A stretch of 64,000 bases of DNA from contig JAVZNT010000001.1 in the NCBI GenBank assembly GCA_038882655.1, forward strand, positions 122,576 to 186,575, in the 5' to 3' direction. Below the pieces are notes generated by a model that saw only the letters and a program-made list of their open reading frames with translations, was not told where the DNA came from and did no database searches. Positions within the stretch are counted from its first letter, which is position 1, and each line of letters begins with the position of its first letter. The translations under genes and the position numbers were made by a program. Shown piece after piece: positions 21,900-62,498 of this stretch. The stretch is from Candidatus Bathyarchaeia archaeon. Lineage in GTDB: Archaea; Thermoproteota; Bathyarchaeia; Bathyarchaeales; Bathycorpusculaceae.

Positions 21900-22147
21900 T
21901 AAATTTTAAAGCATTTCACAAGCTACACTCGCTTCAGTACTTATTTAAATCAGCTGCATGGTACGCGGGTTTTATAACCAGTCATCTACACAATTACGAA
22001 CCAAAAACACTTCAGTATAAACCTAACTTGCGCATAACAAACAGCAAATTAATAGAATAATAACAATTTTGTTCAGAATAAAATATATCTTTCATCATCT
22101 TCACCCGAACAAACTGGAAAACTATGCCGCTCTAAAAAAGTTTATTG

Positions 22148-22168
22148 AACCTCTAGAAACCTTAAATG
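22148..22168 (+). promoter_or_regulatory. Putative BRE/TATA promoter (AACCTCTAGAAACCTTAAATG), leaderless type
   Basis: The identical 21-mer lies ~30 bp upstream of the ATG of both paralogs (also at 29224-29244). Confidence 0.5.
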
Positions 22169-22194
22169 CTTGCTCAACCCATTTTCAGTTTGAA

Positions 22195-23097
22195 ATGTGC
22201 CCAGAAACAAGCAAAAAAGCCGAAGAAAAATCATTTGAAATAATGACCACCCAGCATTTAATAGAAACAATAAATCAGCTTCAAACAGAAGTTGAAAATC
22301 TGAAACAAGAATTAAAAAAAGCCAAAAGCATACCATCCGGAAAAATAGGTTTAGCCTTCATAATTCTTAGCACATCGGCCCTAATTGCTTCTGTTTTAAT
22401 TAACTTGTATATCTTAGCCTTCATAGGTTTAGCCTTAGCCTTTTGGGGTGCCCTTTTCTTTTTCGTGAAGCCAGCGCGATATGCTCAAAGCAGCTTGTTA
22501 GCCCTAACAGCAACATCAACATACACAACAATCGACAGAATAATAAAAGACTTAAAATTCAAAGGTAAAAGCTATTACATACCACCTTCTCCACAAGCAG
22601 ATTCGCATGAATACTCTCAGGGCCTCAAAGACCCTGTAGTTTTCATAGCTGGCGATTCGCGTGGAATACTACCACTAGAGGAGGCTGTAGAAAGCAAGTT
22701 TCTACTCAAGAACCCCCACGGAATATACATTACTCCACCAGGACTTGGGCTTCTAAAACAGTTTGAAAAAGAATTAAGAAAGGACTTATCGAAGCTTAAA
22801 TTAACTGAATTATGCAAAATCCTGCCACCATTAATTGTTGATAATTTGCAATTGGCAAAAAATATTGAAATGCAAGCCAGAGATAGCCATGTTTACCTCA
22901 AAATATTAAACTCAACCTATATGGATTTATATATCACAGAGGAAAAATTGAAAAGCATTTACTTCCTTGGATGCCCACTCATAAGCGCTATAGCTTGCGC
23001 AGTAGCCAAGACTTCTGGAAAAACTGTTACAGTAGAAGGACAAAAAGTATCTAACGATAAGCAGACAGTCGAAGTTTGGTATCGTATAATGGAATAA
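22195..23097 (+). CDS. Hypothetical membrane protein, paralog A (coiled coil + 2 TM + GCPxxSAIAC domain)
   Basis: Colinear, high similarity to 29273..30196; shared MCP start places the start at ATG 22195. Confidence 0.75.
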   Translation: MCPETSKKAEEKSFEIMTTQHLIETINQLQTEVENLKQELKKAKSIPSGKIGLAFIILSTSALIASVLINLYILAFIGLALAFWGALFFFVKPARYAQSSLLALTATSTYTTIDRIIKDLKFKGKSYYIPPSPQADSHEYSQGLKDPVVFIAGDSRGILPLEEAVESKFLLKNPHGIYITPPGLGLLKQFEKELRKDLSKLKLTELCKILPPLIVDNLQLAKNIEMQARDSHVYLKILNSTYMDLYITEEKLKSIYFLGCPLISAIACAVAKTSGKTVTVEGQKVSNDKQTVEVWYRIME

Positions 23098-23313: not shown

Positions 23314-24084
23314 GTGAAAATATATATGAATATGAAAAGAGGAGAAGTATACATTTCTATAGCCATCGCTTTAATTATAGCCTCAGCATTTATTCAACCT
23401 GCATTAGCATGCTACGTCTACGTAGAAGGATATGTGACATATTGCGGATGTACCCCTGCAGAAGGCCTAATAATCAAAGTCTACTACATACCATCAGTTA
23501 TTCCCGGTCCCGAACAGCTAGTAGGAACCGACATAACAGACTCCAGCGGATATTATAGGATAGATTTCCACCTGCCCTACTGGAATGAACAGTACAGAAT
23601 AGAACTTTGGTCTTCAGATGGCATCACACTTTTAAACCAAACAACAATACTATGGGTAATGAATGTTGATCATTATAGGATCGACTTCAAATTGCCTGGC
23701 ATATGTGGAGAAGGTTTCACGCCAGGCTTCTGGAGAAACCACTTAGAAATCTGGGTCACCTACACTCCAAGCACGCTTTGGAAAGATGTTTTCGAAGACC
23801 CAATATCAATAAGAATTGGTAAAAAGACAATCACAAATCCCACATTAGGACAAGTAATAATCGCTACAGGCGGAATCAACGAGAAAATAGGCGTATATGA
23901 CGCATTAGCAAGGCACGCCGTTGCAGCCCTTCTAAACGCAGCCCACCCCAACGTGGACTACCCAATGACGATAGCCGAAATAATAAACGCAGTCAATGAA
24001 GTGATCGGCAACGCTGACTATACAGACGCAGCAACATTGAAGAACACTCTAGAAGCGTACAACAACTTTGGCGGCACAATATAA
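23314..24084 (+). CDS. Secreted hypothetical protein (transthyretin/prealbumin-like N-domain + GFTPGFW...AVAALLNA C-domain)
   Basis: Signal peptide (PALA), TDSSGYY motif, TPGFWRNH and LARHAVAALLNAAHP motifs. Confidence 0.65.
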   Translation: MKIYMNMKRGEVYISIAIALIIASAFIQPALACYVYVEGYVTYCGCTPAEGLIIKVYYIPSVIPGPEQLVGTDITDSSGYYRIDFHLPYWNEQYRIELWSSDGITLLNQTTILWVMNVDHYRIDFKLPGICGEGFTPGFWRNHLEIWVTYTPSTLWKDVFEDPISIRIGKKTITNPTLGQVIIATGGINEKIGVYDALARHAVAALLNAAHPNVDYPMTIAEIINAVNEVIGNADYTDAATLKNTLEAYNNFGGTI

Positions 24085-24322
24085 ACAAACAATTACAGTT
24101 AAATGGACAAATCATCCCAAGAGCTGGCAAGCCTTAGAGGGCGTCTAAAGCTGTAAAGCTTTATAACTTTGCAACTACAACAACTTAGACTTCCAACACA
24201 AGAAAGATTGGGAAAAACAATCGAAATCGTACTAGTATTGCTAGAAAATATTAGAACAAAAATAACTTAATATAAACCGATAAACTTCTAATATTCCGAA
24301 TTAAAAATTGGACTGGAAACAT

Positions 24323-24874
24323 ATGAAAATGCCGCTAAAAACTCTGATCGGTTTCATAAGACGGCATCGGAAAACTTTGCTCCTAAGCATAACCGTTTCC
24401 TCAGCAACATTGCTGGTGAGCACAATAGTTTCCATATGGCTCAACAACTTTCACAACGTGCGCTTGCCAACTCTAGGAACTATAAGAGCAATTGGCGTTG
24501 AAGTTTATGGCGGCAATTTAACCAACGGTGCACAACTTGACTGGGGAACTATTTACCCGGGAACCTTGACAAACCGCTCATTTTACGTTCAAAGCGAAAG
24601 TAACACGCCAGTAACTTTAAGCCTAAAACAATTAAACTTCACACTCCTAAATTCAAAAGGAGAAAATGTCACTGACTATTTACCATTACCCCCAACAGAA
24701 GCATTAAACATCACATGGAACTGTGGTGGCGTTGTTTTAAACCCTAGACAAGAAACTTTTGCAACATTAACTCTAAACGTAACTAGAGATTTCGGTTTTG
24801 TACAGTTTTTGATAAACTATAATGTGGTTGAGTTTAATTTTGATATCCGCATTGAGGCAAAGCCGATAGAATAA
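24323..24874 (+). CDS. Small surface protein with N-terminal hydrophobic helix and DWG-x-x-x-PG beta-sandwich (putative filament subunit)
   Basis: GTIRAIGVEVY...LDWGTIYPG...FYVQSESNTPVTLSL...FNFDIRIEA; homologous to 30427..30873. Confidence 0.65.
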   Translation: MKMPLKTLIGFIRRHRKTLLLSITVSSATLLVSTIVSIWLNNFHNVRLPTLGTIRAIGVEVYGGNLTNGAQLDWGTIYPGTLTNRSFYVQSESNTPVTLSLKQLNFTLLNSKGENVTDYLPLPPTEALNITWNCGGVVLNPRQETFATLTLNVTRDFGFVQFLINYNVVEFNFDIRIEAKPIE

Positions 24875-24973
24875 TTTCTGTTCTATAACTTTAAGGCAAA
24901 TTTTCTATATCATTAATCCATAGGGGTTTAATTTTCAGTTCTGAAAATTCTAAATAGAGAAAGGAGAGCATCA

Positions 24974-25687
24974 ATGCAAAATACGCCAAACAATGTTATT
25001 TCAGTGGTTATTCCAGCCTACAACGAAGAGAAAACCATTGGAAGCGTCATTGAAGAAACCCTTCAAGTAATGGACAGCTTAGGTTTACCCTATGAAATTA
25101 TTGTTGTCGATGATGGTTCAACAGACGGCACTAAAGAGATAGCAAGCAAATATAAGGCTAGAGTATTATCCAATGGAAGAAATCAAGGAAAGGGTTACGC
25201 CCTAAGGAAGGGTTTCCAACATGCTCGAGGCGAAATAGTTGTAACAATTGACGCTGACGGTTCTCATAAACCAAAGGAAATCCCGGATTTGCTTTATCCG
25301 CTATTTAACGGGGCGGACATCGTAGCTGGTTCAAGATTCTTAGGTAAGGGGGAAGATTATACATCCAAACTTCATATGCTTGGTAACCATCTAATCAATA
25401 TGACAATAATGTTGCTGACACGAAAGCTTATCACAGATAGCCAAACAGGTCTAAGAGCCTTTAAAAGAAAATTACTTGAAAAAGTGAATTTAGAATCCTA
25501 CGGATATGAAATTGAAACCGAAATAACCGTTAAGGGACTAAAAAATGGCTTTAAGTTTCAAGAAATCCCGATTAGTTGCCAGAAGAGAGAGCACAGCGTT
25601 TCCAGGTTAAGGATACTTTCAGATGGGTTTAAAATTCTTAAAACAATTCTAACGTCCGTTGCTAAAAACAACAATGGTGATTCTTAG
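24974..25687 (+). CDS. Polyprenol-phosphate glycosyltransferase (GT2, DPM1-like)
   Basis: VVIPAYNEE, VVDDGSTDGT, NQGKGYAL, IDADGSH, GSRF, DSQTG. Confidence 0.9.
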   Translation: MQNTPNNVISVVIPAYNEEKTIGSVIEETLQVMDSLGLPYEIIVVDDGSTDGTKEIASKYKARVLSNGRNQGKGYALRKGFQHARGEIVVTIDADGSHKPKEIPDLLYPLFNGADIVAGSRFLGKGEDYTSKLHMLGNHLINMTIMLLTRKLITDSQTGLRAFKRKLLEKVNLESYGYEIETEITVKGLKNGFKFQEIPISCQKREHSVSRLRILSDGFKILKTILTSVAKNNNGDS

Positions 25688-25784
25688 AAAATTTTGGAAG
25701 TGTAGAAAATTGTTTCAAATCTTCTATATCTCATCTCCATACGCTCTTATATAGCGCTCTGATAAATTATTAGTGTGGTTACCA

Positions 25785-26348
25785 ATGAAAACTGTTTACG
25801 TAGCATTGGCCGTTCTATTAATTGGACTATTTCTAGCAACAGCTAATATAGCCCATGCACAATGGCCTGCGTTAAGCTCAGGTTATGCTGTAACAACAAA
25901 CTGGCATGGGAAAGAAGTTCCGCTGGGCGAAAGCGTCACCGTATGGGCAGGAACAACTGACTCGAATGTTCAAGAAGTGCTGTTCCGATGGAAAAGGCCA
26001 GATGAAACAATATTTGTTGAGATTAACGTTCCAGTAGTTGGTCCGTACACAACGCCCAACGTTCCTGAAGGCGTGCCACAAGAAATTATTAACTGGGCTA
26101 ACAGTAACCCAGGCATAAACGTCTATTACGCAAATAACACGCAAACTCCAGACACGCTTGGCGATTGGGGCGTTCAAGCTTTCTTCAGAGGACCAGGCGG
26201 GAAAACAAAAGCAGGCGTCGAAGAGACAATAGCTATAAGGGCAACGTCATTTAATGTCATACCAGACCTTCCCGTAGTCGGTACCGCAGGCGCGGTAACA
26301 GCAATGCTTTTAGGTTTAGGATTGTTTTTCCAGAAAAAGAAACAATAA
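25785..26348 (+). CDS. Secreted protein with C-terminal sorting signal IPDLP-TM-KKK (exosortase target 1)
   Basis: Signal peptide (AHA); C-terminus FNVIPDLPVVGTAGAVTAMLLGLGLFFQKKKQ. Confidence 0.75.
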   Translation: MKTVYVALAVLLIGLFLATANIAHAQWPALSSGYAVTTNWHGKEVPLGESVTVWAGTTDSNVQEVLFRWKRPDETIFVEINVPVVGPYTTPNVPEGVPQEIINWANSNPGINVYYANNTQTPDTLGDWGVQAFFRGPGGKTKAGVEETIAIRATSFNVIPDLPVVGTAGAVTAMLLGLGLFFQKKKQ

Positions 26349-26499
26349 AACTCTTGAGAACGATTTTAAAACATGCGGTTGTACCAAGATAATGGGTTTT
26401 TAATAGAAAATTTTGTTAAAGGGTCTATACTTGTTTTCCATGTCGATTTATAAGAGTGCGATTTCAAATATTTTATCGACGCACAAAGAGGGGAAAGGA

Positions 26500-27114
26500 T
26501 TGAACCTTAAAAAATTGCTGCTAGCGCTTGTAATTGTTGCTTTTGCTGCTAGTTCTATTTTTATATTAGGTGTCAAAGCGGAGGATGAAATAAACGACTA
26601 TGACAATGTACTTGCGGAACAAGTAATTAATGACATCAACAGCACTGTTAACTCAGGTCTTAATGAAGGAGAAATAAAATATGACCAAAATTACACGCTT
26701 TACAGGTTAACAGTGATGCCGAAAAGTGTTACCGTTGGGCAACAGGTAACTGCAATAGCGGAAACAGATAATAAACATGTGACCCATGTCACATTCGTGT
26801 GGGTAAAAGCGTTTGATGGAATCAGAAAAATAGAAACTGTTCCAGTTTATTTGGAAAACGGTTTGAAAAAAGCTGAAAGCACATACAACCCTGACGAGCG
26901 AGGTTCATGGTGGGTGTTCGCTTTGTTTGAGCAAAGATATGTTGATTCATGTAAATGTGGATGGTTGTTCGCCATGCGGTGGGCATGCTTTAGGGTCACT
27001 GGAATCCAACAACAAGTACCAGATTATCCAGTGGTTGGCACCGCTGGCGCCGTGACAAGCATGCTTGTGAGTTTAAGTTTATTCCTAAATAAGAAAAAAC
27101 AAAAGCCCATTTAG
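26500..27114 (+). CDS. Secreted protein with C-terminal sorting signal VPDYP-TM-KKK (exosortase target 2)
   Basis: Signal peptide (VKA) from TTG 26500; C-terminus QQVPDYPVVGTAGAVTSMLVSLSLFLNKKKQKPI. Confidence 0.75.
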   Translation: MNLKKLLLALVIVAFAASSIFILGVKAEDEINDYDNVLAEQVINDINSTVNSGLNEGEIKYDQNYTLYRLTVMPKSVTVGQQVTAIAETDNKHVTHVTFVWVKAFDGIRKIETVPVYLENGLKKAESTYNPDERGSWWVFALFEQRYVDSCKCGWLFAMRWACFRVTGIQQQVPDYPVVGTAGAVTSMLVSLSLFLNKKKQKPI

Positions 27115-27174: not shown

Positions 27175-29232
27175 GTGAAGAAGGTTCTAGACAAAATTAG
27201 GTGGGTAACCAGTATATTGAAGGATTATTGGCAACACATTTTAGCCGTATCTCTTTTTCTGTCAATAATTTGGGTGGTTTATTGGCATGACCTAGAAATA
27301 TTGGCAAATGAAGCTCTTCATACTGAAGCTCTTTCCCACGTCTTTTTAATACCTCTTTTCGTAGGCGTTCTTCTCTACTTGAAGAGAGATGTGTTTAAGG
27401 CTTCGTTTGCTTTAAATTCTCTGCGGAAGAAATCGGGGAGCATGTTTTTTGACGAGCTTGTCGGATTAAGCCTATGCCTCATAGCCTTTCTCGTCTACTG
27501 GTATGGTTCTTACACGCTCTACCCGTTGGAATATCATATGCTCGCCCTACCCATATTCGTGGCGGGCATTATACTAATTCTCTTTAACCTAAAAGCCTTG
27601 AAAGCGCTCACTGTCCCTGTGGTTCTCCTCATTTTTCTGGTTCCAATTCCCAACGAGATAGCATACACTTTGGGCGGAAGCTTAGCCAACTTTAACACTC
27701 AAGCCTCCTACACACTACTGAAGGGACTAGGAGTCCCAGTAACATTAAACACAACGTATGGTTCTCCAACCATAATGTTGGTAAAACCCCAAGAGCCGCC
27801 TATTCCATTTACGGTGGACATTCCATGCTCAGGAATTTATATGTTAACCGCCTTTTCCATGTTCGCCGTTTTCTTAGCGGCGATTGTGCAAGCCTCAACT
27901 CTTAAAAAGGCTTGGATTTTCATGCTTGGATTCGCCATATTCGAGGTTTTAAACATAATCCGCATAACATCCATAGTTTCTGCAGCCTACCTTTTCAGCG
28001 AAGAAGTCGCCATGCTGATTTTCCATTCAGCGGCAGGCTTGATCCTCACATTTATTGGAATATTCATCACTCTAATTGTGTCTGAAAAGCTATTAGGGAT
28101 AAAAGTTGCCACCAGCAAGATCGAAACGCCTTCATGTTCAGAGTGTAATAAACTGCGGGAGAAATTCCAGAACTTTTGCTTAAACTGTGGAAGGTTCTTT
28201 AACCCGTTTAAAAAGAAGCCCTCTAAAATTTTTTGGACAAAACTAATACTGCTGCTGGTCGGCTGTTTTCTAATATCCTTGAGTGTCAACGCACCAGTTT
28301 TCGCGATCTCTAAGGAAACAATGGAAGTAACCTCGTGGGAAAGAACAACAGAAATTTTGCCGCAGATTCCAGAGCACCGACTCGTTTTTCTATATCGGGA
28401 TACAGACTATGAACGAATAGCGAAACAGGATGCGTCGCTGGTTTACGCCTATTTTCCAGCAAACCTTTCAAGGCCAGTTACTTATGTCCTTATAGGCGTG
28501 GCAAGCAGCATCTCAAACCTTCACAATTGGGAAGTCTGCCTCATATCATGGCAGACAGCTTACGGACGTTATCCGCTGGTTGAAGTTCTAGTCTCTAAAG
28601 ACATACAATTACTTGAAGGTAACCAGTTGATTGCAAGGTACCTAGTTTTTCAAAATTCCGAGGAAAACTATACGCAATTCACCCTTTATTGGTATGAAAA
28701 GGCAACATTCAAATTAGGCGCCACCGTGCAGCAGCGGTACGTTAGAATAAGCCTTATAATATTAGCAGGGAATGCTTTCAGTCATCAACAATATGAAAGC
28801 CAGCTTCTAGAGTTTGGAGAGGCCGTGGCCCACCACTGGGAACCAATAAAGACACATTCCTTGTTTTCTTTAGGAATAACCGCGCAACAAACCCTTCTCG
28901 TCTTTTCAATAGCCCTCATAATAATCACAAAAGTAGCCCAGTCCACTCACGAGTGGCGCAAAAAAATGAATAACCTTAAAATATTCAACAATCTCGCTTC
29001 GCCAACAGATAAGCTTGTGCTTCAGACAATCACCGAACTGAGCAAAGCCAAAGGGACCGCCACAACAGCTGAAATAAGCTTTGCAATCAAGAACAAAACT
29101 GGAAAAACATTGAGACTTGAAAGGCTTGTAGAACGGTTAAACCGCCTACAAGAATATAATTTCGTAAAAATGGATATAACCGCGAACAATAACAAGCCTC
29201 TACTAGTTTGGAAAAGTTTAGTAAACCTCTAG
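27175..29232 (+). CDS. Exosortase/archaeosortase family transpeptidase fused to Zn-ribbon, EpsI-like and winged-helix domains
   Basis: SHVFLIP, LVPIP and Cys-Arg-His triad motifs VDIPCSG / LNIIRI / IFHSAAG; CSEC..CLNC; LHNWEVCL and LYWY; C-terminal wHTH-like segment. Confidence 0.88.
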   Translation: MKKVLDKIRWVTSILKDYWQHILAVSLFLSIIWVVYWHDLEILANEALHTEALSHVFLIPLFVGVLLYLKRDVFKASFALNSLRKKSGSMFFDELVGLSLCLIAFLVYWYGSYTLYPLEYHMLALPIFVAGIILILFNLKALKALTVPVVLLIFLVPIPNEIAYTLGGSLANFNTQASYTLLKGLGVPVTLNTTYGSPTIMLVKPQEPPIPFTVDIPCSGIYMLTAFSMFAVFLAAIVQASTLKKAWIFMLGFAIFEVLNIIRITSIVSAAYLFSEEVAMLIFHSAAGLILTFIGIFITLIVSEKLLGIKVATSKIETPSCSECNKLREKFQNFCLNCGRFFNPFKKKPSKIFWTKLILLLVGCFLISLSVNAPVFAISKETMEVTSWERTTEILPQIPEHRLVFLYRDTDYERIAKQDASLVYAYFPANLSRPVTYVLIGVASSISNLHNWEVCLISWQTAYGRYPLVEVLVSKDIQLLEGNQLIARYLVFQNSEENYTQFTLYWYEKATFKLGATVQQRYVRISLIILAGNAFSHQQYESQLLEFGEAVAHHWEPIKTHSLFSLGITAQQTLLVFSIALIIITKVAQSTHEWRKKMNNLKIFNNLASPTDKLVLQTITELSKAKGTATTAEISFAIKNKTGKTLRLERLVERLNRLQEYNFVKMDITANNNKPLLVWKSLVNL

Positions 29233-29272: not shown

Positions 29273-30196
29273 ATGTGCCCAAAACCGAAAAAAGAGAGAA
29301 CAATCAAAAAATCTGAGGATAAATTATACGAATTAACAACCACGCAGCATCTAGTTGAAACGATTAAGCAGCTTCAGACGGAAATCGAAGATTTAAAAGC
29401 AGAATTGAAGAAGGTTAAGAGTATCCCAACTGGAAAAATAGGTTTAGCCTTCATAATTCTAGGCGTATTAGCATTCATCTTCGCTATGTCATATGACTCA
29501 AACATTTTAGCCTTTATAGGTTTAGGTTTAACCTTTTGGGGTGCTCTCTTCTTTTTTATAAGACCAGCAAAATACGCCCAAAGTAGTCTATTAGATTCAA
29601 CAGCAGTCTCCACTTATACAACAACCGACAGAATAATAAAGGACCTAAAATTTAAAGGCAAAAGCTACTACATACCACCGTACCCAAAAGAAGTTTACCT
29701 TCCTGAATATCTTAAAGGACTAAAAGAACCAGTAGTTTTCATTTCGGCCGACACTGGTGGTATGCCATCTATAGAAGAACTTGCTAAAAGCAAATTTCTA
29801 CTCGCAAACCCAAAGGGAATATGTATAGTCCCACCTGGTCTAGGACTGTTGACCAAGTTCGAGAATGAGCTTAGAAAGGATATGGCAAAGTTTCCGTTAA
29901 ATGAATTATGTGAAATCCTTCCGTCAATAATTACCGAGAACTTACAGTTAGCAAAAGAAATGGAGATCAAGGTTGAAGACCGCGGAGTTTACTTAAAAAT
30001 GTTGGACGCTGTATATATGAACCTTTATAGTGCAGAAAGAAATCTGATAAGCATCCATCGCCTTGGATGTCCTATTATAAGTGCGATAGCATGTGCGCTG
30101 TCTAAGGCTGCAGGAAAAATTGTTACAATCCAGAGGGACAATGTTTCCCCCGATGGCCAAACTATTGAGGTTTGGTACCGTTTCATGGAGGCGTAA
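29273..30196 (+). CDS. Hypothetical membrane protein, paralog B (coiled coil + 2 TM + GCPxxSAIAC domain)
   Basis: Paralog of 22195..23097. Confidence 0.75.
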   Translation: MCPKPKKERTIKKSEDKLYELTTTQHLVETIKQLQTEIEDLKAELKKVKSIPTGKIGLAFIILGVLAFIFAMSYDSNILAFIGLGLTFWGALFFFIRPAKYAQSSLLDSTAVSTYTTTDRIIKDLKFKGKSYYIPPYPKEVYLPEYLKGLKEPVVFISADTGGMPSIEELAKSKFLLANPKGICIVPPGLGLLTKFENELRKDMAKFPLNELCEILPSIITENLQLAKEMEIKVEDRGVYLKMLDAVYMNLYSAERNLISIHRLGCPIISAIACALSKAAGKIVTIQRDNVSPDGQTIEVWYRFMEA

Positions 30197-30426: not shown

Positions 30427-30873
30427 CTACTGCTCTGTCCCGGATATAATTATGCTAAATGAAAAGTTTGTTATTCCACTGATGGCTGGGTTAACACTTA
30501 AAGTTAAATTTACGCCGACAATATGGCCGGCATTTAAGACGTAGCCACTACGGTCCCATGTCACTGTGATATAGTTTGCAGCTGCAGCGGGAGACCACCC
30601 AGAAGTTGTCATACTCAAGACAACGGGCACTGTTCCGTTGTTACGTACGTAAATAGTTTTGGTCACAGTTTCTCCAGGTGCTAGCATTCCCCAATCTATG
30701 GTTGTAACAGGACTTGTCCCGTTACTATACCAGTAAACACTCACCCCAGCTGCTTTAATAGTTGCAGTATTATGGAATGAATATAACGCTGTAAGTGCAC
30801 TTAAAGCAACTGCAACAAATGTTACTGTAACGATGGTCAATAGCATACCTACCTTGATTCGTTGCATAGCCAT
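30427..30873 (-). CDS. Small surface protein with N-terminal hydrophobic helix and DWG-x-x-x-PG beta-sandwich (putative filament subunit)
   Basis: NTATIKAAGVSVY...IDWGMLAPG...IYVRNNGTVPVVLS...FSFSIIISG; N-x-T sequons. Confidence 0.7.
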   Translation of the reverse strand: MAMQRIKVGMLLTIVTVTFVAVALSALTALYSFHNTATIKAAGVSVYWYSNGTSPVTTIDWGMLAPGETVTKTIYVRNNGTVPVVLSMTTSGWSPAAAANYITVTWDRSGYVLNAGHIVGVNLTLSVNPAISGITNFSFSIIISGTEQ

Positions 30874-61423: not shown

Positions 61424-61553
61424 AATCAACAAGTAATTTTGGCAAAAAGACTGCTTATGTACAGAATTTCTTAGTATGGATCAAGTCAGAAATTGTCCAA
61501 AAACTTTATTTTGTATATTTTGCGATTATCACGGAGAATCAGGAGAGAATGAA

Positions 61554-62498
61554 ATGCCTAGGAAAACAATTTTGGGGGTTATAACGCTACTGTTGTTAAT
61601 TTACATGTTGGCTATGGTGTTTAACATTCAACAGGTCAAAGCTGGAACAATTACTGTGCCAGACAATTATCCAACAATTCAAGCAGCTTTGGAGGCTTCG
61701 AATAACGGAGATATCATTTTCGTAAGGGCTGGAGTATACTTTGAAAACGTGGTTGTAGACAAAAGCGTCTCACTTGTAGGAGAAAACGCAGCAACCGCAA
61801 TCATTGACGGGGGCGGAAGTGGAACAGTTATTTACATAACTGCAAATAACGTCCAAGTCACAGGCTTTACAATACGAAACAGCGGTGGTTGGCCCAGCTA
61901 TGGGGTTCGGATAGAAGATGTAAATAATTGCAATGTTTTCAGGAACAACTTAACGAACAACTGGTGTGACATTAGGCTTTACTATTCTTCAAATAATAGC
62001 ATAGCCGAAAACATCATAACAAACAGTGAAATCGGCATATGGGTTGCCAATTCTTTAAACAATAGCATAACTAAGAACACCATAACAAACAATAATTATG
62101 GCATTGAAATCGATTATTGTTCAGAGAATAACATAAATGAAAATGATATAATGACAAATAACTATGGTATTGTGCTCACCAGCGCTTCAAATAACAATAT
62201 TTATCATAACAATTTTATCAACAACGCCGATCAGATTGATTCTTTCGACTCGGTGAACGCTTGGGATGACGGTTATCCTTCCGGAGGGAACTATTGGAGC
62301 GATTACACAGGGATAGACAATAACGGCGATGGCATAGGCGACACTGCATACATAATAAACACAAACAATCAGGATCGTTATCCATTGATTAATCAATGGA
62401 TAATACTCGAGTTTCCACAAAGTTCCATGCTCATCAGCCTTATATCATTAACTACAATCTTCTTAATTTACTTAAAGAAACGAACCGCAAAAAACTGA
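61554..62498 (+). CDS. Secreted NosD/CASH beta-helix protein with PEF-CTERM-like tail
   Basis: Signal peptide (VKA), TITVPDNYPTIQAA, Asn-rich PbH1 repeats, GNYWSDY.G.D..GDGIGD, tail ILEFP-TM-KKR. Confidence 0.85.
   Translation: MPRKTILGVITLLLLIYMLAMVFNIQQVKAGTITVPDNYPTIQAALEASNNGDIIFVRAGVYFENVVVDKSVSLVGENAATAIIDGGGSGTVIYITANNVQVTGFTIRNSGGWPSYGVRIEDVNNCNVFRNNLTNNWCDIRLYYSSNNSIAENIITNSEIGIWVANSLNNSITKNTITNNNYGIEIDYCSENNINENDIMTNNYGIVLTSASNNNIYHNNFINNADQIDSFDSVNAWDDGYPSGGNYWSDYTGIDNNGDGIGDTAYIINTNNQDRYPLINQWIILEFPQSSMLISLISLTTIFLIYLKKRTAKN

Follow-up and report, generated by a model that had tools for sequence, protein, structure and literature searches.

An exosortase-family protein of Bathyarchaeia with a predicted cytoplasmic winged helix and a candidate operator before its putative substrate genes

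The closest known systems to the archaeal sortase gene considered here are the bacterial exosortase-EpsI fusions. In bacteria, EpsH is encoded with an adjacent or fused EpsI, for which the parts of Haft 2006 concerned with these genes give no known function (PMC1569441). The PEP-CTERM genes of Proteobacteria carry a common upstream cis-element and are regulated by a separate PrsK/PrsR pair, according to the corresponding parts of the same paper (PMC1569441), and the background on EpsH-EpsI fusions and PrsK/PrsR in the first-pass annotation of this DNA agrees with it. The archaeosortases ArtA-E have been described for a subset of Euryarchaeota as plain enzymes acting on PGF-type or other motifs, and the relevant section of the 2018 review gives exosortases as being without experimental analysis at that date (PMC6098224). 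The present gene is located at positions 27175 to 29232 of a 64,000-nucleotide (nt) stretch from a Candidatus Bathyarchaeia archaeon (assembly GCA_038882655.1, contig JAVZNT010000001.1, positions 122,576 to 186,575 of the forward strand). This whole stretch is referred to as the window, and coordinates are those of the window unless a contig is named.

Exosortases and archaeosortases are widespread and have hardly been studied biochemically, and Bathyarchaeia are among the most abundant archaea of sediments. Membrane-tethered one-component regulators are represented by ToxR and CadC in bacteria and by ArnR in Sulfolobus; these are non-enzymes with one or two transmembrane (TM) segments, and their binding to DNA has been demonstrated. 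In the BlaR1/MecR1 systems, a membrane sensor-protease acts together with a separate winged-helix repressor, BlaI/MecI, which occupies a palindromic operator beside the controlled genes and is cleaved on signalling.

The sortase encoded in the window contains a predicted cytoplasmic ribbon and a winged-helix tail. Fold, charge and a candidate operator suggest that the tail, as a dimer, may bind a palindromic box before the genes of the candidate substrates, which would make the sortase a regulator of its own substrates; the probability of this reading is put at roughly 0.4. A literature search on archaeosortases and exosortases, in combination with Bathyarchaeota, winged helix and EpsI, found no paper describing such an architecture for this enzyme class. 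The candidate operator and the subfamily-specific basic tail are new here, together with an independent check of a cysteine pair.

The five-part protein and its relatives

The protein of 685 amino acids (aa) is composed, in order, of an exosortase core, a Cys4 zinc ribbon, TM9, an outer domain, and TM10 with a C-terminal winged helix. Structural assignments were derived from AlphaFold2 (AF2) models, graded by the predicted local distance difference test (pLDDT), and from Foldseek and VIA-align comparisons.

27175..29232, + strand: whole sortase gene, GTG start, 685 aa, five-part protein
27265..28080, + strand: exosortase/archaeosortase core, residues 31-302 (PF09721, TIGR04178)
27826-27828, + strand: Cys218 in VDIPCSG, codon checked
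27961-27963, + strand: Arg263 in LNIIRI, codon checked
28024-28026, + strand: His284 in IFHS, codon checked
28135..28188, + strand: residues 321-338 (CSEC-x10-CLNC), putative Cys4 zinc ribbon within a basic, predicted cytoplasmic loop
28231..28299, + strand: TM9, residues about 353-375, hydropathy peak 2.34
28300..28860, + strand: outer beta-rich EpsI-like domain, residues 376-562, AF2 block with pLDDT 90-98
28522-28539, + strand: H450-x-W452-E453-x-C455 in LHNWEVCL, invariant HxWExC, codons checked
28870..28938, + strand: TM10 by hydropathy, residues about 566-588, one continuous helix with the juxtamembrane stretch (model residues 163-233)
28939..29229, + strand: basic juxtamembrane helix (589-608) and winged helix (610-681: H1, short strand, H2, H3, two-strand wing), by AF2, Foldseek and VIA-align

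Residues 31-302 match the Pfam family Exosortase_EpsH (PF09721) with an E-value of 1.7e-30 (106.7 bits against a cut-off of 25.7), and the NCBIfam exosortase/archaeosortase signature TIGR04178 is passed (48.1 against a cut-off of 23). The cut-offs of the named NCBIfam subfamilies are not reached (score/cut-off: XrtW 82.5/425, XrtA 68.8/208, XrtD 46/400, XrtV 44.6/313 and ArtC 21/100), XrtW and XrtA being the best-scoring models, and residues 375-685 matched no Pfam or NCBIfam family. The core is polytopic, with eight hydrophobic segments between residues 20 and 305 in a hydropathy scan and an orientation derived from charge only. The motifs on which the first-pass annotation had built its four-part architecture (VDIPCSG, LNIIRI, IFHS, CSEC-x10-CLNC, LHNWEVCL, LYWY and the LQTITELSK...VWKSLVNL segment) were all found in the order given, and the codons were checked. 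The genomic context is archaeal (RpoD, L18e, L13, S9, RpoN, enolase and S2 at 31.4-35.6 kb). By homology and context, the protein is very probably an exosortase-family Cys/Arg/His transpeptidase that serves adjacent proteins with PEP-like signals.

A second, plain archaeosortase of 328 aa lacking the extra domains is encoded outside the window in the same genome (C1:38142-39128; L002:1360-2346), whose assembly comprises 1.02 Mb and is 84% complete. It passes TIGR04178 (50.4 bits against 23), and its nearest subfamily is the thaumarchaeosortase TIGR04297, with 53 bits, far under the cut-off of 250.

A search with the whole protein returned 727 proteins at E <= 0.001 among 7998 scored candidates. 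Among the best 120 of the 727, 116 are 651-705 aa long at a coverage of 95-100%, and the named entries belong to Bathyarchaeia, Bathyarchaeota or 'Thermoproteota', apart from one partial record that bears the label Fervidobacterium. Two sets were used for the counts given below: a close set of 31 full-length sequences including the query (52-81% identity), and a wider set of 66 full-length representatives clustered at 50% identity. The Cys218/Arg263/His284 triad is invariant in the close set (31/31) and intact in 48 of the 66 wider representatives. Also invariant in 31/31 are N448, L449, H450, W452, E453, C455, Y505 and W506 of the outer domain, the last two lying within LYWY (residues 504-507), and N600, F604, A608, L655, L658, Y661, P675 and W679 of the tail. 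This invariance of the triad, ribbon, outer and tail residues shows that the motif set is more than chance.

A HMMER scan with residues 375-685 alone returned 266 cluster representatives, 93 of them at E <= 1e-30, and the full-length matches are mostly 650-720 aa long with the match at about positions 380-680. The C-terminal half, searched with this query, was found in 12 of 151 genomes of the class and, within the family to which the window belongs, in 7 of 15. Forty-four related loci came from a pattern scan over species-representative genomes, all of them from metagenome-assembled genomes of Bathyarchaeia/Bathyarchaeota except for one 'Thermoproteota archaeon' and one 'uncultured archaeon'. 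The tail is present in the orthologues, as the first-pass annotation presupposed: P675 is found in 59 and W679 in 64 of the 66 full-length cluster representatives. Judged from these sequences, the architecture is maintained across Bathyarchaeia. Possible split forms of 260-340 aa (P0296, P0228, P0313, P0273 and P0286) were rejected and look like internal starts or truncated calls rather than true stand-alone genes.

The hydropathy scan gives ten hydrophobic segments in total, namely the eight of the core, TM9 and TM10. Lysine and arginine together number 5 at the N-terminus, 12 in the loop 304-356 and 17 in residues 592-685, and the 190-residue interval between TM9 and TM10 is net acidic. By the positive-inside rule, this distribution places the catalytic residues and the middle domain outside, and the ribbon and the winged helix are predicted to be cytoplasmic, on the side where the regulatory idea of the first-pass annotation needs the tail. 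The ribbon spacing C321-x2-C324-x10-C335-x2-C338 corresponds to two CxxC knuckles and is invariant in 31/31; in the wider set, four ribbon cysteines are found in 34 representatives and three in 19. Pfam ribbon models remain sub-threshold on the query (E 0.23-0.66), and among 90 relatives DZR matches 21 and Zn_Ribbon_1 reaches a best E of 2.5e-5. By knuckle count and spacing, the Cys4 motif qualifies as a putative zinc ribbon.

The AF2 model of residues 375-685 (90-row alignment) has a mean pLDDT of 92.7 and a predicted TM-score (pTM) of 0.74. It consists of a beta-rich domain, a long helix running through TM10 and the juxtamembrane stretch, and then H1, a short strand, H2, H3 and a two-strand wing; this rigid helix sets the tail about 18 residues below the membrane. 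The tail modelled alone (residues 590-685, 99-row alignment) gives a pLDDT of 92.7 and a pTM of 0.81. Foldseek matches of the tail are winged-helix domains only (probability 1.0, E 2e-3 to 2e-2, TM-scores 0.52-0.72), including PadR-like TA0346, TFE-alpha, MecI, Cdc6, YodB, Fur/PerR, MarR and ArsR. VIA-align places Cdc6 (Z 11.3, root mean square deviation (rmsd) 1.8 over 89 residues), DNA-bound Orc1 (Z 11.3) and RosR (Z 11.0) at the top, followed by BlaI/MecI (Z 10.4-10.5, rmsd 1.6-1.9 over 72-73 residues), with Fur also between Z 10.4 and 11.0; the overall range, Fur, MarR and PadR domains included, is Z 9-11.3 with an rmsd of 1.6-2.5 over 70-90 residues. The modelled C-terminal tail thus folds as a winged helix, as the first-pass annotation had proposed from the letters.

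No named helix-turn-helix (HTH) sequence family in Pfam, NCBIfam or Atlas includes the query tail. The sole Pfam/NCBIfam row for residues 601-685 is a sub-threshold match to POTRA_3 (E 0.025, 14.5 bits against a cut-off of 27). Sub-threshold HTH matches among the 90 relatives are few (Cdc6_C 2, HTH_12 2, MCM4_WHD 2, FUR 2, HTH_20 1 and PadR 1). A family sequence profile compared with PDB chains gave nothing significant (best E 0.16), the Atlas search with the tail gave no usable match, and a single-query search found no paralogue of the tail in its own genome.

Candidate substrates and the palindromic box

The genes and sites on which the regulatory reading bears are located on both sides of the sortase gene. 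Counts over 55 loci refer to the cassette survey, in which four loci are duplicates of the same genome.

24884..24921, + strand: third, degenerate copy of the repeat (family D2; 66% identity) before the GT2 gene, in which the right half-site TTTTCTAT is preserved
24974..25687, + strand: GT2 glycosyltransferase, AglJ-like, dolichyl-phosphate hexose transferase-like (PF00535, E 3e-39), 33/55 loci
25685-25695: extra half-site upstream of substrate gene 1
25703..25728, + strand: box TAGAAAAT-N12-TCTATA, a palindrome; a TATA-like element of substrate gene 1 follows about 18 nt downstream
25773..26348, + strand: candidate substrate 1, 191 aa, with signal peptide, C-terminal NVIPDLPVVGT, TM segment and KKKQ
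26404..26429, + strand: second box copy; a TATA-like element of substrate gene 2 follows about 20 nt downstream
26413..27114, + strand: candidate substrate 2, with C-terminal QVPDYPVVGT, TM segment and KKKQKPI
29273..30196, + strand: 307-aa membrane protein with a coiled coil, two TM segments and a cytoplasmic domain of ~200 aa, directly after the sortase gene, 47/55 loci

The two candidate substrates are paralogous (34% identity, E 6e-16), and no other open reading frame (ORF) of the 1.02-Mb genome ends in P-[VIL]-[VIL]-G-[TS], a TM segment and KKKQ; both genes lie directly upstream of the sortase gene. The listed start of substrate 2 (TTG at 26413) lies inside a conserved non-coding promoter block, and the true start is therefore probably the TTG at 26500, which agrees with the TATA-like element at about 26450 and gives the product a normal signal peptide. 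A signal-bearing neighbour ORF is present in all 12 closely examined loci (the window and eleven from the class survey; ten by script and two by reading). With a relaxed signal pattern, it was found in 31 of 44 further loci, and 6 of the 13 misses are loci of 7 kb or less. The consensus over 43 tails is F-N-V-[IV]-P-[ED]-x-P-[LVF]-(x)-G-T, followed by a hydrophobic stretch and K/R. No NCBIfam model recognises this sorting signal; by its composition (V-[IV]-P-[ED]-x-P-x-G-T, TM segment and basic tail), it is a PEP-CTERM-like signal.

A repeat search identified related stretches (family D2) before the GT2 gene and both substrate genes. The pattern TAGAAAAT-N10-14-TCTATA has two copies in the window, and the same two are the only ones in the whole 1.02-Mb genome, both before substrate genes; no shuffle of the window reached two copies, for a pattern chosen post hoc. 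The box is conserved at the same place in related loci, where it generalises to the palindrome TAGAAA(A)-N9-14-(T)TCTA. In 456,890 bases, the generalised box is matched 29 times. Fifteen of the matches fall between -200 and +150 relative to the start of a signal-bearing frame; such intervals together cover 3.2% of the sequence. Counted by gene over the 44 related loci, 15 of the 40 signal-bearing genes have the box before them, against 11 among the 372 other genes (Fisher p 1.6e-10), a p-value that is overstated because related loci are kin. The 11 other genes include 4 GT2 orthologues, 1 sortase gene, 1 gene for the 307-aa protein and 2 genes whose products look like substrates. Five control patterns (reversed, direct repeat, swapped halves and two AT-rich palindromes) precede 0-1 of the 40 signal-bearing genes. 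The box also precedes the signal gene of a locus whose sortase is 39% identical (L021). In the four most distant loci (L022-L025), no box was found near a signal gene; one occurs about 6.4 kb away in L023, and L022, L024 and L025 lack it altogether. The 11-nt half-site TAGAAAATWKT, tried by itself as a conserved element, was rejected (only 11 of 69 loci, several on the wrong strand), and the pattern of two half-sites alone is informative.

Outer domain and the Cys218/Cys455 pair

The outer domain follows the exosortase core and a TM segment and faces outward by domain order and charge distribution, which is the place of EpsI in EpsH-EpsI fusions. In the first-pass annotation, it was named EpsI-like. 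Its position agrees with this name. PF11984 (DUF3485) is only sub-threshold: with the query, neither it nor the EpsI model TIGR02914 gave a match at E <= 1, and among the 90 relatives 6 matched at E <= 0.1 (best 0.0056) with the cut-off never reached, which counts against the proposed kinship. Of ten isolated outer domains, two matched PF11984 with 13.6 and 12.6 bits (cut-off 26.1), and these matches are co-linear from profile position 48 to 154 (about 105 positions); the nearest named Atlas clusters carry PF11984 with scores of 0.88-0.89, which serves as a lead only. The same ten domains matched nothing in NCBIfam. A search for PF11984 is uninformative, since it found the family neither in the 301 genomes of the phylum nor in any control genome. 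The motif HxWExC is invariant in the close set; the motif given for EpsI in the first-pass annotation is H-x-P-x-x-C. Because the sequence evidence for homology is weak, the domain is labelled EpsI-like and is not filed as a member. A link to true EpsI through a profile of 22 outer domains was rejected: the 58 proteins found are all pieces of the same family, none of them labelled PF11984. Foldseek with the 311-aa model gave weak rows only for the outer domain (E 5e-3 to 3e-2: 3lyd, Apa 5zx9, LpqN 6e5d, DcrB 6e8a, MTC28 4pws and TiME 7cu9), and both VIA-align lists were filled by the winged helix.

Among the 66 full-length representatives, both Cys218 and Cys455 are present in 48, neither in 16, and 2 are discordant. 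On a tree built without the two cysteine columns, loss of Cys218 requires nine changes, at least six of which are forced by well-supported branches, and loss of Cys455 requires eight; at least five to six separate losses are forced by well-supported branches. One class has Ser/Ser at positions 218 and 455 and keeps the Arg, the His, H450 and E453 (e.g., P0135 and the P0232 clade); P0169 (Cys/Ser) is sister to the P0232 clade. In a second class without both cysteines, further triad residues have also been lost, in some lineages most of the triad. Representatives without the catalytic cysteine are P0135, P0232, P0262, P0266 and P0270, and also P0217, P0219, P0220, P0233 and P0267. Since lineages without the catalytic cysteine retain the winged-helix hallmarks P675 and W679, they would be either pseudo-enzymes or serine-type variants.

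The joint retention and loss of Cys455 and Cys218 make it most likely that the outer domain takes part in catalysis or its gating. That it does so via Cys455, for example as a second thiol or redox pair, is suggested by these counts with about even chances. Two points speak on the other side: the phylogenetically paired test on six independent pairs (4 the same way, 0 opposite and 2 unchanged) gave p = 0.125, at low power, and the co-loss could merely reflect the decay of dead enzymes. A complex prediction for the halves 1-352 and 353-685, which belong to one polypeptide, gave a score of 0.49 (best of three controls 0.00), with at least 88% of contacts agreeing between runs and a partner pLDDT of at least 70; the prediction supports an association weakly and is given as a score without contacts. 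Of 80 solved complexes, 58 attain the mark used, as do 2 of 110 mismatched pairs; at 0.60 or under, only 7 of the 80 do, and both mismatches.

Regulatory reading, alternatives and comparison with known systems

In the proposed mechanism, the active site would lie at the outer membrane face, and the enzyme would recognise V-[IV]-P-[ED]-x-P-x-G-T of the neighbouring secreted proteins, cut away the TM anchor and hand the protein to a surface acceptor. The His/Glu/Cys cluster of the outer domain would join catalysis or gate it. The tail, as a dimer, would bind TAGAAA-N9-14-TCTA just upstream of the TATA elements of substrate genes, in relatives also of GT2 genes, and the sortase would act as a membrane-tethered one-component regulator that matches the supply of substrates to sorting capacity. 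A fuller version, in which the sortase regulates its substrates through the tail, perhaps together with the ribbon, and an outer Cys218/Cys455 thiol relay or redox gate feeds back on transcription, is tentative and rather unlikely.

Several findings on the tail and the box weigh against regulation by the tail. Protein-binding winged helices are among the structural matches (RPA32C Z 9.6, Stn1 Z 9.8, ESCRT-II Z 9.1 and Nse); since DNA-binding and protein-binding winged helices are both matched, the fold of the tail is settled and its ligand is not. Fold alone does not give function, and DNA binding by the modelled tail is putative. The best-conserved tail residues (P675, W679, L655, Y/F604 and N600) look structural. 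Over the 66 representatives, residues 609-681 have a mean net charge of -0.5 (between -6 and +7), and the recognition helix H3 is acidic (mean charge -1.3). Across the wider family, the wing tip reads D-[DE]-E-P, position 673 being Asp in 56 of 66 representatives, and is unlike typical DNA-contacting wings. The box pattern was defined after the window copies had been seen, and 25 of the 40 signal genes lack a box under the generalised pattern. Genome-wide in five genomes, a stricter pattern has 5 matches against 5 for its reversed control, so the evidence from the box is its location and not its frequency. The box could also be the target of any soluble factor whose gene lies elsewhere.

The tail of the subfamily to which the query belongs is basic (mean charge +6, from +1 to +11; wing +2.6; 31 sequences, 49 loci), K/R flank the wing proline, and this is the same subfamily that has the palindromic box. 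The one-component idea of the first-pass annotation is favoured by a cassette-specific box before substrate genes and by the basic subfamily tail, and is weakened by the acidic recognition helix and the D-[DE]-E-P wing tip of the wider family.

The same enzyme could instead use the winged helix and the ribbon as docking modules for a cytoplasmic protein partner, likeliest the 307-aa protein or else GT2, with the box read by an unlinked soluble regulator. The gene of the 307-aa protein follows that of the sortase in 47 of 55 loci and its product is mostly predicted to be cytoplasmic, and this explanation would account for the neutral to acidic tail and wing of the wider family, for the protein-binding winged helices among the matches and for the tail that catalytically dead paralogues retain. 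It fits less well with the basic tail of the query's subfamily and with a cassette-specific palindrome for which no other candidate binder is found in the cassette (no DNA-binding-type family among the other conserved cassette genes in Pfam or NCBIfam), and it is considered possible but doubtful. An improbable alternative is that the cytoplasmic modules bind the basic KKKQ tail of the sorting signal or anionic lipid head groups, and position substrates or orient the enzyme with no control of genes. The conserved K/R cluster that ends the sorting signal on the cytoplasmic side, the acidic wing of distant relatives, which could complement a basic tail, and the closeness of the domain to the membrane would all be in keeping with it. 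In the query's subfamily, however, the tail and the substrate ends are both basic, which argues against charge pairing, and the 328-aa archaeosortase of the same genome has no such module.

To our knowledge, no sortase or exosortase requires a cytoplasmic module of this kind, which also counts against binding of substrate or membrane. The protein might otherwise be mainly a sensor or scaffold, with an outer domain that senses a surface cue, a tail that signals inward and a transpeptidase activity that is secondary or lost. Nine of the 16 representatives without both cysteines also lack Arg263 and/or His284, and those without both cysteines retain W452, Y505/W506, P675 and W679, as would be expected of such a protein. 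The query and all of its 30 close homologues, however, retain the full triad and Cys455, and cognate signal-bearing genes are adjacent, so a sensor or scaffold role is given only a slim chance. If, as the regulatory reading has it, the tail binds the box, the enzyme and the regulator would be one membrane protein; in the fuller version, gene control would be built into a sortase-class enzyme for the first time, and the long-unexplained EpsI domain would gain a chemical role. The sortase family gives Bathyarchaeia a dedicated PEP-CTERM-like surface-protein cassette, and it offers testable handles in the short palindromic box and the 96-residue soluble tail, as well as in the cysteine pair that would link the outer EpsI-like domain to catalysis.

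Two further conserved genes flank this cassette:

24308..24874, + strand: protein of 188 aa, N-terminal TM segment followed by a beta-rich domain, no Pfam/NCBIfam family, 37/55 loci
30427..30873, - strand: protein of 148 aa on the opposite strand, N-terminal TM segment followed by an Ig-like domain, 38/55 loci

The 148-aa protein has weak sub-threshold matches to choice-of-anchor D and SipW-dependent matrix protein. Both proteins are beta-sandwich-like, weakly resemble choice-of-anchor D or SipW-dependent biofilm matrix protein, and may be surface-fibre or matrix subunits. The GT2 protein scores 170.8 bits with TIGR04182, under the cut-off of 325. The 307-aa protein, a possible partner of the sortase tail, has no match in Pfam, NCBIfam or PDB; a paralogue with 63% identity is encoded at 22069-23097 (+ strand), and the C-terminal ~200-aa domain of both ends in a conserved CP-x-ISAIACA stretch. 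A secreted-looking protein of 256 aa is encoded between this paralogue and the cassette (23314-24084, + strand) and has no counterpart in the 55 related loci, so it is probably outside the system. A 340-aa protein (61476-62498, + strand) is rich in N-x-I/V repeats with a beta-helix look and ends in ILEFPQSS, a TM segment and KKR; by this PEF-CTERM-like tail, it may be a substrate of the second archaeosortase.

Like the bacterial exosortase-EpsI fusions (XrtD TIGR04152 and XrtW NF038142), the query has a Cys/Arg/His core of eight TM segments, to which a further TM segment and an outer domain are joined, and the neighbouring genes carry a PEP-like signal, a TM segment and a basic tail, with a glycosyltransferase in the locus. 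Matches of the query to the XrtW and XrtD models cover mainly the core (24-363 and 46-307, respectively) and end before the outer domain at 376-562. The query further differs from these fusions in its archaeal host, in the Cys4 ribbon inserted after TM8, in the extra TM10 with the predicted cytoplasmic winged helix, and in the Trp of its outer motif (HxWExC). With ArtA of Haloferax volcanii and ArtB-E, as far as the review sections on them go, it shares an archaeal host, the superfamily, the catalytic residues and a tripartite C-terminal signal on surface proteins; unlike ArtA-E, it is nearer to the bacterial exosortases and has three extra modules, scoring 21 bits with ArtC (cut-off 100), with ArtA not listed.

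As in ToxR/CadC and ArnR, a predicted cytoplasmic winged helix is joined by a TM segment to an outer domain, and the putative targets lie near the gene; in contrast to these regulators, DNA binding by the query is derived only from fold, charge and a candidate operator. Unlike BlaR1/MecR1 with BlaI/MecI, the query has the enzyme and the winged helix in one polypeptide, for which no cleavage site is known, and BlaI/MecI are nevertheless among the best structural matches to its tail.

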